Program-made: the position numbers and the translations under genes
Shown here: piece by piece, positions 33,065 to 53,889 of the stretch
Layout of the letters: each line of letters starts with the position of its first letter
Position numbering within the stretch: the first letter of the stretch is position 1
NCBI GenBank assembly: GCA_049317645.1
Contig: JBMOHV010000001.1
Coordinates: forward strand, 975 to 64,974
Source of the DNA: Bacteroidia bacterium
GTDB taxonomy: Bacteria > Bacteroidota > Bacteroidia > UBA7662
Length of the DNA stretch: 64,000 nt
Direction of reading: 5' to 3'
The notes under the pieces: model-generated
Databases searched by the model: none
What the model was told of the DNA's origin: nothing
Seen by the model: only the letters and a program-made list of their open reading frames with translations

Positions 33065-33113
33065 ACCGCGTTGATAACCTAAGCCGAGCGCAATTCTTCG
33101 GTAAATTTGTTCA

Positions 33114-33566
33114 ATGTCTCATCAGATAACCACCCGTCCCGTCTCAACATCCTTGTTAACGGTTTCCTTGGGGCTCTTGCTCCTGGTTGCGGGATGTCAA
33201 CACGAATCCCTGGCTCCTCCCAACCTGGATCCAGACTATATAAGCAGCCCTTGTTCCCCGGATTCCGCGTATTTCGTCCGCGATGTTTTGCCCATCCTGG
33301 CCAGCAATTGCGCTGTCAGCGGTTGCCACGATGCCTCAACCCGAGCAGAAGGCGTTCGATTGGATCATTACCAGGCCGTCATTCAAACAGCGGAAGTCCG
33401 GGCCGGAGATCCTGACAACAGCGAACTGTTCGAGGTTTGTGTGGAAACCAGCCCCGATAAACGCATGCCTCCTCCGCCCCGTTCACCGCTCAGTCCGGGC
33501 CAGGTGGAAACCCTCCGTCGCTGGATCGCCCAAGGGGCCCGCAACAACCACTGCACCGACAATTAA
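33114..33566 (+). CDS. Small lipoprotein with a PSCyt1-like (Planctomycete-type cytochrome c) domain carrying a CX4CH motif
   Basis: Lipobox LLLVAGC. VLPILASNCAVSGCHDASTRAEGVRLD...DKRMPPP...LSPGQVETLRRWIAQGA follows the PF07635 pattern, but the heme motif is CAVSGCH (33309-33329) rather than CxxCH. Confidence 0.5.
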   Translation: MSHQITTRPVSTSLLTVSLGLLLLVAGCQHESLAPPNLDPDYISSPCSPDSAYFVRDVLPILASNCAVSGCHDASTRAEGVRLDHYQAVIQTAEVRAGDPDNSELFEVCVETSPDKRMPPPPRSPLSPGQVETLRRWIAQGARNNHCTDN

Positions 33567-33569
33567 ACC

Positions 33570-33995
33570 ATGAAAAATCGTCCCCTTTTGATTTTGTTTG
33601 CGGCCGTTCTCATGGCCATCGCCGTCGCCTACGCGTATTTTCGTTGGAACCAGGCCCCCGAATCGTTGGCCCAAAAAGACCCTGATTTCCAAATCAAAGC
33701 CAACACGCTCTTGGAAGAATTTCAATCCAACAGCGCAAAGTCCCAACCCCTTTACCTCAATCGAATCCTTGAAATCGAGGGTCGTTGCGAATCCATCGAA
33801 AACCAAGGGGATTCCCTATTCTTTGTTTATATCGGTTCCCATAACGGCGCTTCGGTGCTGTGCCAACTCGAAAAGGGCCTCGACCCTCTGCCACCTGTTG
33901 GACAAAATTTACGATGCAAAGGCCTGTGCACCGGCTACGATGATTTGACGGGCGGTGCCTCCATGGACCGCTGCGTACTCGTCAATTTCCCTTAA
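33570..33995 (+). CDS. Hypothetical exported protein (possible OB-fold)
   Basis: 141 aa. N-terminal signal-anchor, four Cys in the C-terminal half, no catalytic motif. Confidence 0.35.
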   Translation: MKNRPLLILFAAVLMAIAVAYAYFRWNQAPESLAQKDPDFQIKANTLLEEFQSNSAKSQPLYLNRILEIEGRCESIENQGDSLFFVYIGSHNGASVLCQLEKGLDPLPPVGQNLRCKGLCTGYDDLTGGASMDRCVLVNFP

Positions 33996-34013: not shown

Positions 34014-34589
34014 ATGAACCATTCCACGATTTCCACCTTTGCCTGCGCCTTCCTTCTTTTGGGCATCAGTACCACCGAATTGCTGGCTCAGAACAAATAC
34101 ATGACCCGGACCGGATCGGCCCATTTTGTGGCTGATGGAATCATCAAAGACGATGTCCAAGCCCGTAGCAATACCGTTACCGCGGTTCTGGATGCCTCCA
34201 ACGGTCAGGTTCAGGCCCGCATTCCTGTCAACTCTTTTGTCTTTCGGAAGGCTTTAATGCAAGAGCATTTCAACGAGAACTACCTTGAGTCGCATCGTTT
34301 TCCGAATGCGAATTTCAAAGGCTCTATACAGGGCTGGAACGAGCAGATGCTCCAAAAATCCGGACCCCAAAAAATCCGATTTGTTGGAACCCTCGAGATT
34401 CACGGCGTCGCTCGCGATATCAGCGAGGCGGGCCTTTTGGAAGTCAACAACGGTCTCGTCCACTTGGAAACAGATTTCAAGGTGATCGTTGCGGAATACG
34501 GCATCAAAGTACCGGCCCTGGTCCGTGACAAAGTCGCCAAGGAAGCCGACGTGCATATTCAAGGCAACTTGAAGGCCACCGCTCAGTAA
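34014..34589 (+). CDS. YceI-family periplasmic polyisoprenoid-binding protein
   Basis: Signal peptide. Colinear with YceI-like proteins (…HFNENYLESHRFPNANFKGS…GTLEIHGVARDI…). 191 aa. Confidence 0.6.
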   Translation: MNHSTISTFACAFLLLGISTTELLAQNKYMTRTGSAHFVADGIIKDDVQARSNTVTAVLDASNGQVQARIPVNSFVFRKALMQEHFNENYLESHRFPNANFKGSIQGWNEQMLQKSGPQKIRFVGTLEIHGVARDISEAGLLEVNNGLVHLETDFKVIVAEYGIKVPALVRDKVAKEADVHIQGNLKATAQ

Positions 34590-50461: not shown

Positions 50462-51160
50462 TTAGGGTTTGGAGAGAGGAAGAGGGGCCCTGTTGGTGAG
50501 GATTCGGTAACGAGCCCATAAATTGGCCAGCCACCACCCTGTCAAGGTCCATCCAAGAACCGCTGGATAGAATACCCAACGCATACGGCCATCCAAATCG
50601 TACGCCGAAAAACCAGGGTTGCCCCCATTGCCCGGGTGCAGGGAATCGGTGAGCCGGGGAAGGATAAAGAGCAAGGGGATCAAACAAAAAAACGCCAACA
50701 CATTGTAAACAGCCGCCATGCGGGCTCGGCGTTGGGCATCCTCAAACGAAGAGCGCAAAACCATGTAGGCCAAATACAAGAGCAAGCCGACGGCGGAAGC
50801 GTTTTGCTTGGGGTCCCCGCTCCACCAGGCACCCCAGGTAAACTGGGCCCAAACCATGCCTGTTACGAGTCCCAAGAAACCGAACAAAAGACCCACCAGG
50901 CCCAGAGAATGCGCCTGGGTATCGTCGGTGGATTGTTGAAACAACAGATAACGAACCGAATAAACGGCGGACCCCAGCAGCATCAACAACATCCCAAACC
51001 ACATCGGAACGTGAAAATACAGATTGCGAACCGACTCATTCAGAATCACCTTGCGGGGAACATCGCCCATCCAACCCATCCAAAAGCTATAAAACAAAAG
51101 CAAGACCGCCATCCATTTAAGGGCCGGATGCAGGGATTTGGGTGCAAGCGATGCGTTCAT
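50462..51160 (-). CDS. ccmC: Heme exporter protein C (cytochrome c-type biogenesis protein CcmC)
   Basis: LHPALKWMAVLL N-terminus, the WGxxWxWD-type tryptophan-rich region (WAQFTWGAWWSGDPKQN) and six TM helices. Confidence 0.8.
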   Translation of the reverse strand: MNASLAPKSLHPALKWMAVLLLFYSFWMGWMGDVPRKVILNESVRNLYFHVPMWFGMLLMLLGSAVYSVRYLLFQQSTDDTQAHSLGLVGLLFGFLGLVTGMVWAQFTWGAWWSGDPKQNASAVGLLLYLAYMVLRSSFEDAQRRARMAAVYNVLAFFCLIPLLFILPRLTDSLHPGNGGNPGFSAYDLDGRMRWVFYPAVLGWTLTGWWLANLWARYRILTNRAPLPLSKP

Positions 51161-51192: not shown

Positions 51193-51861
51193 TCAATCCC
51201 TCCAAAGAAAAGGGAAAAGAAGGACTCCAAGTGCCAACAACATGAGATTTAGTCCCACCAATGCCCCGGCATAGGTCCAGGCCAAATCCCGGGACAATCC
51301 GTCCAAGGCCAATTTGGAAAGCCGGTGAACCAACAGAAGACCGGGGACCAACAAAGGAAAGCCAAGCACCGGCATCAATTGGGCCGGTTGGCTGGCCCCT
51401 TGGGACATGGCCGATACCAAGGTCAAGACCGTGACCAACATGGGGGCCCCCAACAAGAGGGTCAAGACAAAGAGCCCCGTGTCTTGGATTGGATAACCCA
51501 TCCACAGGGCCATGAGCACCGCACAAAACCCCATGAGAACCCAAAGCATGAGGGTTCCGGTCATGACTTTGGTCAACCACCAGGCCACCCCGGGAACACT
51601 GACTCGGTAATAAAGGTGCAGGCCCTTGCTCTGCCCCAGAAAACTTCTTGAAACCGTATAAATCGAAACAAAAAGCACCAACAACCAGTAAAAAGTCAGC
51701 CAGGCAGCGGGACCCACCGGGCGCAAAAGAAGCTGTGCGGCAAAGACCCCTGCTACCAAATAAAGCAGCGATCCGGCCAAGGCCTGGGCCTGACGGGTTT
51801 CGCGCCGCACATCGTGACCCAAAAGGGCCAGGGCACGGCGGAGGAAGGCTGCTTGCTTCAT
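51193..51861 (-). CDS. ccmB: Heme exporter protein B (ABC transporter permease CcmB)
   Basis: 222 aa, six TM helices, CcmB-like N-terminus (MKQAAFLRRALALLGHDVRRE). ccmA is not adjacent. Confidence 0.7.
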   Translation of the reverse strand: MKQAAFLRRALALLGHDVRRETRQAQALAGSLLYLVAGVFAAQLLLRPVGPAAWLTFYWLLVLFVSIYTVSRSFLGQSKGLHLYYRVSVPGVAWWLTKVMTGTLMLWVLMGFCAVLMALWMGYPIQDTGLFVLTLLLGAPMLVTVLTLVSAMSQGASQPAQLMPVLGFPLLVPGLLLVHRLSKLALDGLSRDLAWTYAGALVGLNLMLLALGVLLFPFLWRD

Positions 51862-53520: not shown

Positions 53521-53889
53521 GGGGCTGAACGGAATCGACAGCTTGTTTAGATGACCCGGTAAGCATGCCGAGCCTGGAATCGTTGCTCGTTAATCCGATG
53601 ATTCAAGCCTTAAACGGCAACTACGACTACGCACTCGCTGCTTAATTCTAGGAATTAGCAAGAGTTGTCTCCGGATAGATGAGCTCACAGGCCTATCCAA
53701 TCGAGGCATCGACCACCGTGAGCTGGTTCTACGGCAGGCTTGACCAAGGAACAAGAACCCTAAAGCCTAAGCGAACACTGCGGCCCGCCTCCCGCCTGGT
53801 GCTCGACCAAAACCAAGGGAACGCTAAGCATGTAGAAAGTCGGGGATCGGCTTGACTGGACCAGGGTTCAACTCCCTGCAGCTCCACAA
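53521..53889 (+). ncRNA. ssrA: Transfer-messenger RNA (tmRNA, SsrA)
   Basis: 5' GGGGCUGAACGGAAUCGAC; 3' T-arm GGGUUCAACUCCC then CAGCUCC-A, complementary to the 5' GGGGCUG. Internal tag frame GGC AAC UAC GAC UAC GCA CUC GCU GCU UAA (…GNYDYALAA, stop at 53643-53645). Length about 366 nt. Confidence 0.85.

Follow-up and report, generated by a model that had tools for sequence, protein, structure and literature searches.

A short Bacteroidota lipoprotein with a PSCyt1/FoxE-like cytochrome c domain and a CX4CH motif belongs to a large family with an expanded putative haem site

Background

PSCyt1 domains (Pfam PF07635) usually occur in Planctomycetes and Verrucomicrobia as the N-terminal module of large PSCyt2/PSD1 proteins. 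Two further c-type cytochromes are relevant to the locus described here, namely FoxE of Rhodobacter ferrooxidans SW2 (PDB 5MAB), a dihaem putative Fe(II) oxidase, and PccH of Geobacter sulfurreducens, a monohaem protein (PDB 4RLR, Pfam PF22297). Both belong to metal or electrode electron-exchange pathways; to our knowledge, FoxE has not been described as a lipoprotein. The CX4CH spacing of haem-binding cysteines is familiar from cytochrome c3-type sites, in which ligation is bis-His and the folds are compact and multihaem, and we know of no CX4CH site in His/Met class-I domains, the motif being otherwise known to us from bis-His multihaem proteins. The literature that we found on CXXXCH and CXXXXCH motifs concerns multihaem or tetrahaem cytochromes, and our search of it returned no report in which a His/Met class-I-like domain has CX4CH as its conserved site.

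The dihaem cytochrome FoxE has His/Met ligation and two CxxCH sites and is encoded together with foxY (a PQQ protein) and foxZ; a disulfide ties the ends of its chain, and the Met that follows each haem motif is reported to ligate the other haem (PMC10654088). In genome surveys of c-type cytochromes, CX4CH is included among the haem-binding motifs (PMC10734462). A precedent of another kind is provided by Cbp2D and Cbp2E of Cellvibrio japonicus, in which a YceI-like X158 module and c-type cytochrome domains have been proposed to form an electron-transfer chain (PMC8981238), and YceI proteins bind polyisoprenoids, including ubiquinone-8.

Here we describe a gene from a 64-kb stretch of DNA (64,000 nucleotides, hereafter the window) of a Bacteroidia bacterium, to which an initial annotation made from the sequence alone had drawn attention. 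Its product carries a single CX4CH motif in a PSCyt1-like domain. The coordinates of the features are collected in Table 1.

Table 1 Features of the cytochrome gene, its neighbours and the ccm-like genes in the window
Feature	Position	Strand	Evidence and remarks
Cytochrome gene	33114..33566	+	150-aa lipoprotein, PSCyt1/FoxE-like cytochrome c domain; NCBI MFZ4630043.1
Signal peptide and lipobox L-V-A-G-C28	33114..33197	+	Cys28 invariant (translation, alignment of 32 sequences)
His30, 2 residues past the lipidated Cys	33201..33203	+	Invariant in alignment A1; His in 82/90 family members
Cys47	33252..33254	+	Invariant in alignment A1; putative disulfide partner of Cys147
Haem-attachment motif C66-A-V-S-G-C71-H72 (CX4CH)	33309..33329	+	Translation, PSCyt1 alignment, homologues, motif logos
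Met118 in invariant K-R-M-P-P-P-P	33465..33467	+	Putative distal haem ligand; aligns with the FoxE 'RMPP' segments
Cys147, 3 residues from the short-form C-terminus	33552..33554	+	Invariant in alignment A1
OB-fold protein, 141 aa, N-terminal membrane anchor	33570..33995	+	Pfam tRNA_anti-like, E 5e-13; conserved neighbour
YceI-like protein, 191 aa, signal peptide	34014..34589	+	Conserved neighbour; last gene of the three-gene unit
CcmD-like small ORF, 56 aa, one hydrophobic helix	50185..50355	-	No NCBIfam match
CcmC-like protein, W-rich motif	50462..51160	-	PF01578 above threshold; NCBIfam ccmC 72.9 bits, cut-off 186
CcmB-like haem-exporter permease	51193..51861	-	PF03379, 34.1 bits, cut-off 24.9

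Results and discussion

The gene product and its closest relatives of known structure

The open reading frame, which starts with ATG, and its translation were checked and correspond exactly to the initial annotation, down to every sequence string quoted there. The N-terminus (MSHQITTRPVSTSLLTVSLGLLLLVAG-C28, then QHE) is a signal peptide with a terminal lipobox, LVAG-C28, which fits the bacterial lipoprotein pattern [LVI][ASTVI][GAS]C, so that lipidation at Cys28 is predicted from sequence as first proposed; a lipobox was present in all 96 of the 96 family members examined. Beyond it, the motifs follow in the order DVLPILASN-C66-AVSG-C71-H72, EGVRLDHY, PDKRM118PPPP and LRRWIAQGARNNHC147TDN. 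The identical NCBI entry is named 'c-type cytochrome domain-containing protein [Bacteroidia bacterium]', public annotation of the family members being generic, and metagenome assemblies of many samples contain the same protein, on at least 21 contigs.

The similarity to PSCyt1, previously recognised from the motif pattern, was recovered in a profile scan: PF07635 is the sole Pfam domain in the protein and matches with an E value of 1e-8 and 36.1 bits, compared with a gathering score of 22. The PIL-helix, the haem motif, G.rLd, MPP and WI..GA are shared with PSCyt1, and KRM118PPPP aligns at the end of the profile. The differences concern the cysteine spacing and the architecture. Whereas the profile has a canonical CxxCH at positions 1-5, the window protein has C-AVSG-CH; the alignment pairs its residues 70-121 with positions 3-58 of the 59 in the profile and leaves the first Cys of the profile (position 1) unpaired, while the canonical PSCyt1 repeat of a 905-aa comparison protein (P0059) aligns from position 1. 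Moreover, the window protein is a short Bacteroidota lipoprotein rather than a large protein with PSCyt2/PSD1 modules. NCBIfam contains no model for this cytochrome, nor for the OB-fold protein, the DUF5777 protein or the small cytochrome that accompany it or its relatives (see below). A weak similarity across the haem-motif region was found to NF047812, the LIC11213 family lipoprotein of Leptospira, at E 7e-4 and 19.7 bits for the window protein and E 1.7e-14 and 54 bits for a two-domain relative, both far below the cut-off of 100.

The AlphaFold model of the window protein has a mean pLDDT of 75.7 and helices at residues 49-66, 86-92, 104-109 and 128-144. In the model, the topology is that predicted for a class I cytochrome c, with a helix ending at the motif (66-72), a loop carrying Met118 and a C-terminal helix; Met118 falls in the range of about 45-60 residues past the motif in which the distal Met of this class lies. 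The models are haem-free and least confident near the CX4CH loop, and in the long form the pLDDT of residues 59-62 drops under 50. Among solved structures, FoxE gave the best match, whether judged by sequence profile or by fold, and PccH the second best. Identity to FoxE is 22-23% over about 80 residues and one domain superposes; FoxE has two canonical CxxCH sites, while the window protein has one CX4CH, and its gene lies among GT4, OB-fold, YceI and bshC genes, without foxY or foxZ.

Comparison with cytochrome c3 gives a divided answer. The likeness suggested in the initial annotation stands for the spacing, since the same four residues separate the cysteines, but we found no similarity to c3 in sequence or fold. 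The window protein is predicted to have one haem site per class-I-like domain of ~100 residues with a conserved Met, unlike c3, and both the fold and this Met point to a class-I-like His/Met site. The window protein is not a member of the FoxE, PccH, c3 or LIC11213 families. It is very probably a membrane-tethered haem protein with two extra residues in its haem-attachment site.

The CX4CH site as a two-residue insertion

Is CX4CH really an insertion into a canonical site? Motif logos were drawn from the homologues for 225 CX4CH domains and 203 CxxCH domains. In either class, the conserved 'PIL' helix and the first Cys are the same distance apart (P+6), the Gly preceding the second Cys is retained and the helix register is the same. 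Because the distance of the first Cys from 'PIL' is equal, the two extra residues sit between the cysteines. On this alignment evidence, CX4CH is a genuine two-residue insertion, as had been supposed.

Conservation of individual residues was assessed in an alignment (A1) of the window protein with 31 homologues, taken from 38 found by a word-indexed search. Invariant in all 32 sequences are C28, H30, C47, C66, C71, H72, M118, P119, W137 and C147; the second Cys and the His of the motif are therefore conserved in orthologues, as is Met118. One of the aligned sequences carries CX3CH. Among BLAST matches to the domain in 88 related loci and the window, CX4CH is present in 96 of 98, the two exceptions being small-cytochrome paralogues with CxxCH.

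In some lineages (Owenweeksia, Ferruginibacter and others), the small cytochrome of the cluster itself has CX4CH instead of CxxCH. Such copies were observed in loci L018 (4147-4503), L028 (6709-7194), L031 (6723-7130), L057 (6641-7051), L066 (1331-1729) and L087 (6576-6974). Therefore, the expanded motif occupies two paralogous positions.

Other conserved elements surround the motif. By analogy with the disulfide of FoxE, Cys47 and Cys147 probably form a disulfide that clamps both ends of the domain, and a second Cys pair, which may serve likewise, is present in domain 2 of the long forms. Glu or Asp follows the His near the lipidated Cys in 66 of 90 family members (C-x-H-[ED]), and the linked small cytochrome lipoproteins start with C-Y-Y-D. 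We considered a coupling of His30 to the CX4CH haem and rejected it, as C-x-H also occurs where the first domain has CxxCH, and small CX4CH paralogues have C-Y-Y-D; His30 may instead be a lipoprotein sorting signal, a surface-export signal or a partner contact. The linker at residues 29-49 (33198-33260; QHESLAPPNLDPDYISSPCSPDS) is nearly constant among short-form relatives down to ~60% identity and is better conserved in short forms than is the same region of two-domain forms. This conservation suggests that the short form has a contact surface of its own.

Size, architecture and spread of the family

A species scan covering one genome per GTDB species, in which the haem motif was one of two search patterns, returned at least 540 matching stretches. 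The 80 GTDB loci that were kept belong to Chitinophagales, Saprospiraceae, Cytophagales, Flavobacteriales and Bacteroidales, all of them Bacteroidota labels with the sole exception of locus L013, and the labelled loci include the cultured carriers Pontibacter populi and Phaeodactylibacter xiamenensis. L013 lies on a 4.3-kb contig (VHAW01000132.1) of a metagenome-assembled genome labelled Sphingomonadales and has the short form in the same GT4-cytochrome-OB context; since all other relatives are Bacteroidota, this contig is probably misbinned.

Since the motif was part of the species scan, 1.84 billion cluster representatives were also searched with HMMER, free of that bias. This search gave 7919 matches at E<=1e-3, of which 1017 reached E<=1e-10 and 107 reached E<=1e-30. 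At least one CX4CH was present in 143 of the best 150 matches. Within the same 150, one CX4CH followed by one CxxCH in a protein of about 230 aa was the most frequent arrangement (81 matches), 26 had two CX4CH and one CxxCH (about 325 aa), nine had a lone CX4CH and one had four CX4CH.

Two to four CX4CH domains in tandem, with a single CxxCH domain after them, were seen in P0076 (519 aa), P0041, P0046 and the ~325-aa proteins. More distant matches contain canonical PSCyt1 repeats only, for example P0059, which has a DUF2231 membrane domain, and P0073 (1611 aa), which has fn3 domains.

Judged by these sequences, CX4CH is a hallmark of a large Bacteroidota family and often shares a chain with a canonical CxxCH site, and the usual member is a ~230-aa dihaem lipoprotein composed of a CX4CH domain and a CxxCH domain. 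The literature that we searched contains no description of this family, of DUF5777 or of the gene cluster discussed below, in agreement with the suggestion that the type is undescribed. A genome-wide search for paralogues had also been proposed: the remainder of the 64-kb window yielded no paralogue, no small cytochrome and no DUF5777 gene, and members of the family are widespread in Bacteroidota. Counts of haem sites based on CxxCH alone would miss one putative haem in each protein of this kind.

These data raise the question of whether the fold has been kept while haem binding was lost or became abnormal, with a single thioether at Cys71 or none. In that case, C47, C66, C71, C147, H30 and H72 would form a metal site or structural disulfides. 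The four invariant Cys and two invariant His are compatible with such a role, the CX4CH loop is modelled at low confidence, no complete maturation system was seen in the window, and two residues inserted into the haem loop could hamper its recognition by a haem lyase. However, C-x4-C-H and the downstream Met are strictly conserved across hundreds of species, CX4CH is reused up to four times per chain beside canonical CxxCH domains, the CxxCH paralogues show exactly the same helix register and the same Gly ahead of the second Cys, and the motif is counted as haem-binding in genome surveys (PMC10734462). Conservation, reuse and the kept register are the pattern expected of a working haem site, so we consider a non-haem or single-thioether site unlikely.

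Origin and maintenance of the short form

Only the first domain is present in the window protein and in its close relatives, which are 141-173 aa long and 60-99% identical. The short form stops 3 residues past the conserved Cys147, and the next gene begins 3 bp beyond the stop codon. In a neighbour-joining tree of first domains (drawn without bootstrap values), the window protein and those of loci L009-L013 form one clade nested among two-domain forms. Pairwise dN/dS in the short-form group is 0.14-0.20, with 0.34 for one very close pair; thus, the short form is under purifying selection.

Another important question is whether the 150-aa reading frame could be a decaying remnant of a gene that lost its second domain through a frameshift or deletion. 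Most family members do have ~230 aa and a second domain, and the short forms are nested among long ones in the tree. Nevertheless, the protein ends cleanly 3 residues after Cys147 and its length is kept in relatives down to 60% identity, the dN/dS values are low, the 3-bp gap to the next gene leaves no remnant of domain 2, and the identical protein recurs on many contigs from many samples. We therefore attach hardly any probability to decay, and we reject a pseudogene or truncation artefact on account of dN/dS, conserved length and the tight gene junction.

The initial annotation had seen here a possible minimal cytochrome. Because the short form is nested inside two-domain forms, it is better described, on the sequence data, as a derived and maintained outcome of domain loss, neither a pseudogene nor a primitive minimal cytochrome, within a very large family whose usual form is dihaem.

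Gene neighbourhood

The protein had also been described as stand-alone, which does not hold for its gene. In the window, the cytochrome, OB-fold and YceI genes form a unit wedged between a GT4 glycosyltransferase gene and a convergent bshC, and export signals are predicted in all three products, namely a lipobox in the first, an N-terminal anchor in the second and a signal peptide in the third. NCBI names the two neighbours 'OB-fold protein' and 'YceI family protein'. In the lineage of the window, the OB-fold gene follows the cytochrome gene in every locus, and the YceI gene is present wherever the contig extends far enough.

Most relatives add a second cytochrome and a DUF5777 protein. The order of the cluster in them is dihaem lipoprotein, small monohaem lipoprotein cytochrome (127-131 aa), anchored OB-fold protein, YceI and DUF5777, the last annotated as 'membrane bound beta barrel'; DUF4920 comes next in some loci. 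When all open reading frames of the 80 GTDB loci were clustered, the cytochrome was counted in 80, DUF5777 in 63, YceI in 60 and the OB-fold protein in 54 loci, and no redox enzyme was conserved in the cluster across these 80.

The locus was also considered as a product of horizontal transfer or as a genomic island. Neither is indicated: the GC content of the cytochrome gene is similar to that of its neighbours, and the housekeeping flanks (CTP synthase, YidC and GT4; bshC, MiaB-like and FtsY) are syntenic in all lineage relatives.

The OB-fold neighbour was likewise evaluated as a CcmE-like haem chaperone for the CX4CH site, an idea proposed from the shared architecture that proved unsupported. 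The sole match of the OB-fold profile among PDB sequences was 3F1Z ('putative nucleic acid-binding lipoprotein', E 2.5e-5); CcmE was not matched. The OB-fold alignment also shows no conserved tail motif of the His/Tyr or Cys/Tyr kind.

Upstream of the unit, a terminator-like hairpin follows the GT4 gene at 33083-33102, and TAAATTTG at 33102-33109, 4 nt before the cytochrome ATG, fits TAnnTTTG. This is the Bacteroidota -7 promoter consensus. Such an arrangement would suggest that the cytochrome gene has its own promoter and a very short leader. A sigma-70 promoter scan gave no match, the sigma-70 model being ill-suited to Bacteroidota promoters.

Regulatory genes adjoin the cluster in a part of the relatives. 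A Reg_prop/Y_Y_Y/His_kinase sensor was found in 16 of the 80 loci and a LytTR response regulator in 13 of the 80; examples of these neighbours are L021 2380-5244 (minus strand) and L039 3702-4460 (plus strand). In ~7 loci, a gene for an AraC regulator precedes the cluster. Genes for a TonB-dependent receptor and HmuY lie downstream in a few relatives (L002-L004 and L060; among the 80 GTDB loci, L048 and L060). Together, these neighbours hint at regulation that is possibly iron- or haem-linked.

The last of these neighbours bears on the possibility of a FoxE-like iron-redox protein, one that oxidises Fe(II) or reduces Fe(III) in the periplasm or at the cell surface and serves iron handling or uptake; with the DUF5777 barrel of the full cluster, it would form a small porin-cytochrome conduit. 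FoxE and PccH as the best and second-best solved matches, the outer-membrane barrel linked in 63 of the 80 loci and the TonB-dependent receptor with HmuY directly downstream in some relatives would all suit such a role. These TonB/HmuY neighbours, however, occur in few loci (2 of the 80), the identity to FoxE is low and confined to about 80 residues, no foxY or foxZ homologue is linked, and the locus of the window lineage is without the barrel gene. A dedicated function in iron redox chemistry consequently appears improbable to us.

Proposed function

The reading that we prefer, to which we assign a rough probability of 0.55, is that the protein is a membrane-tethered, extracytoplasmic monohaem c-type cytochrome of PSCyt1/FoxE/PccH-like type that acts as a periplasmic electron carrier with a YceI-held quinone. 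Haem would be covalently attached at Cys66 and Cys71 of the expanded CX4CH site, with His72 as the proximal ligand and Met118 in KRMPPPP as the most likely distal ligand. The lipid anchor would hold the cytochrome in the periplasm, where it could transfer single electrons between the YceI-held quinone and another partner. In relatives with the full cluster, the additional putative haems and the DUF5777 barrel suggest a path that may continue to the outer membrane.

Cytochrome-quinone exchange is proposed because YceI pairs with cytochrome domains in Cbp2D and Cbp2E. In both cases, a YceI-type quinone-binding module is paired with c-type cytochrome domains outside the cytoplasm. In Cbp2D/E, the domains are fused in one secreted protein, which has a cellulose-binding module and serves LPMOs; in the window, they are encoded by separate genes of an operon with no carbohydrate-active partner, and the likeness lies in the pairing of the modules. 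Among the points against a carrier of this kind are that the cluster is without a conserved redox enzyme and that the window locus is without the second cytochrome and DUF5777.

The source of the distal ligand deserves separate comment. Since the Met residues of FoxE reportedly ligate the other haem, ligation by Met118 in cis is not assured in a single-domain form. Met118 in cis, a dimer, or another residue as the ligand source are possible alternatives.

A broader and more tentative idea is that CX4CH is the obligatory haem site of a widespread Bacteroidota His/Met class and that the cluster is an unrecognised envelope-spanning porin-cytochrome-quinone module, of which the window keeps the inner part; we think this possible but rather doubtful as a whole. 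If it is true, the haem-attachment machinery of Bacteroidota routinely handles a motif that has so far been tied to bis-His multihaem proteins. The five-gene cluster, which combines three putative haem domains with the OB-fold anchor protein, the quinone-binding YceI and a barrel of the outer membrane, is in any event a candidate periplasmic or outer-membrane electron path in Bacteroidota, a phylum dominant in many aquatic, soil and gut environments. If CX4CH binds haem with His/Met ligation, the known substrate range of bacterial cytochrome c maturation would be wider, and the family would offer a natural test case for the tuning of a class-I-type haem by Cys spacing. The motif variant thus raises a testable question about haem-lyase specificity in Bacteroidota.

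Maturation genes in the window

The initial annotation had noted a System I maturation fragment (ccmBCD) 17 kb from the cytochrome gene. The genes themselves are present: a ccmB, a CcmC-like and a CcmD-like gene lie ~17 kb downstream (Table 1), flanked by genes for glutamate dehydrogenase and biotin carboxylase. They are the only part of the System I set seen in the window, which covers 64 kb of the genome, and no ccmA, E, F or H was found beside them. Because the CcmC-like protein scores only 72.9 bits against a cut-off of 186 and because ccmA, E, F and H are not beside the trio, this trio is not sufficient evidence of maturation by System I. The divergent CcmC-like protein also matches CcsB, at 45.8 bits. 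Farther along the window, a tmRNA gene was identified at 53521-53889 on the plus strand (Rfam RF00023, 138 bits, full length).
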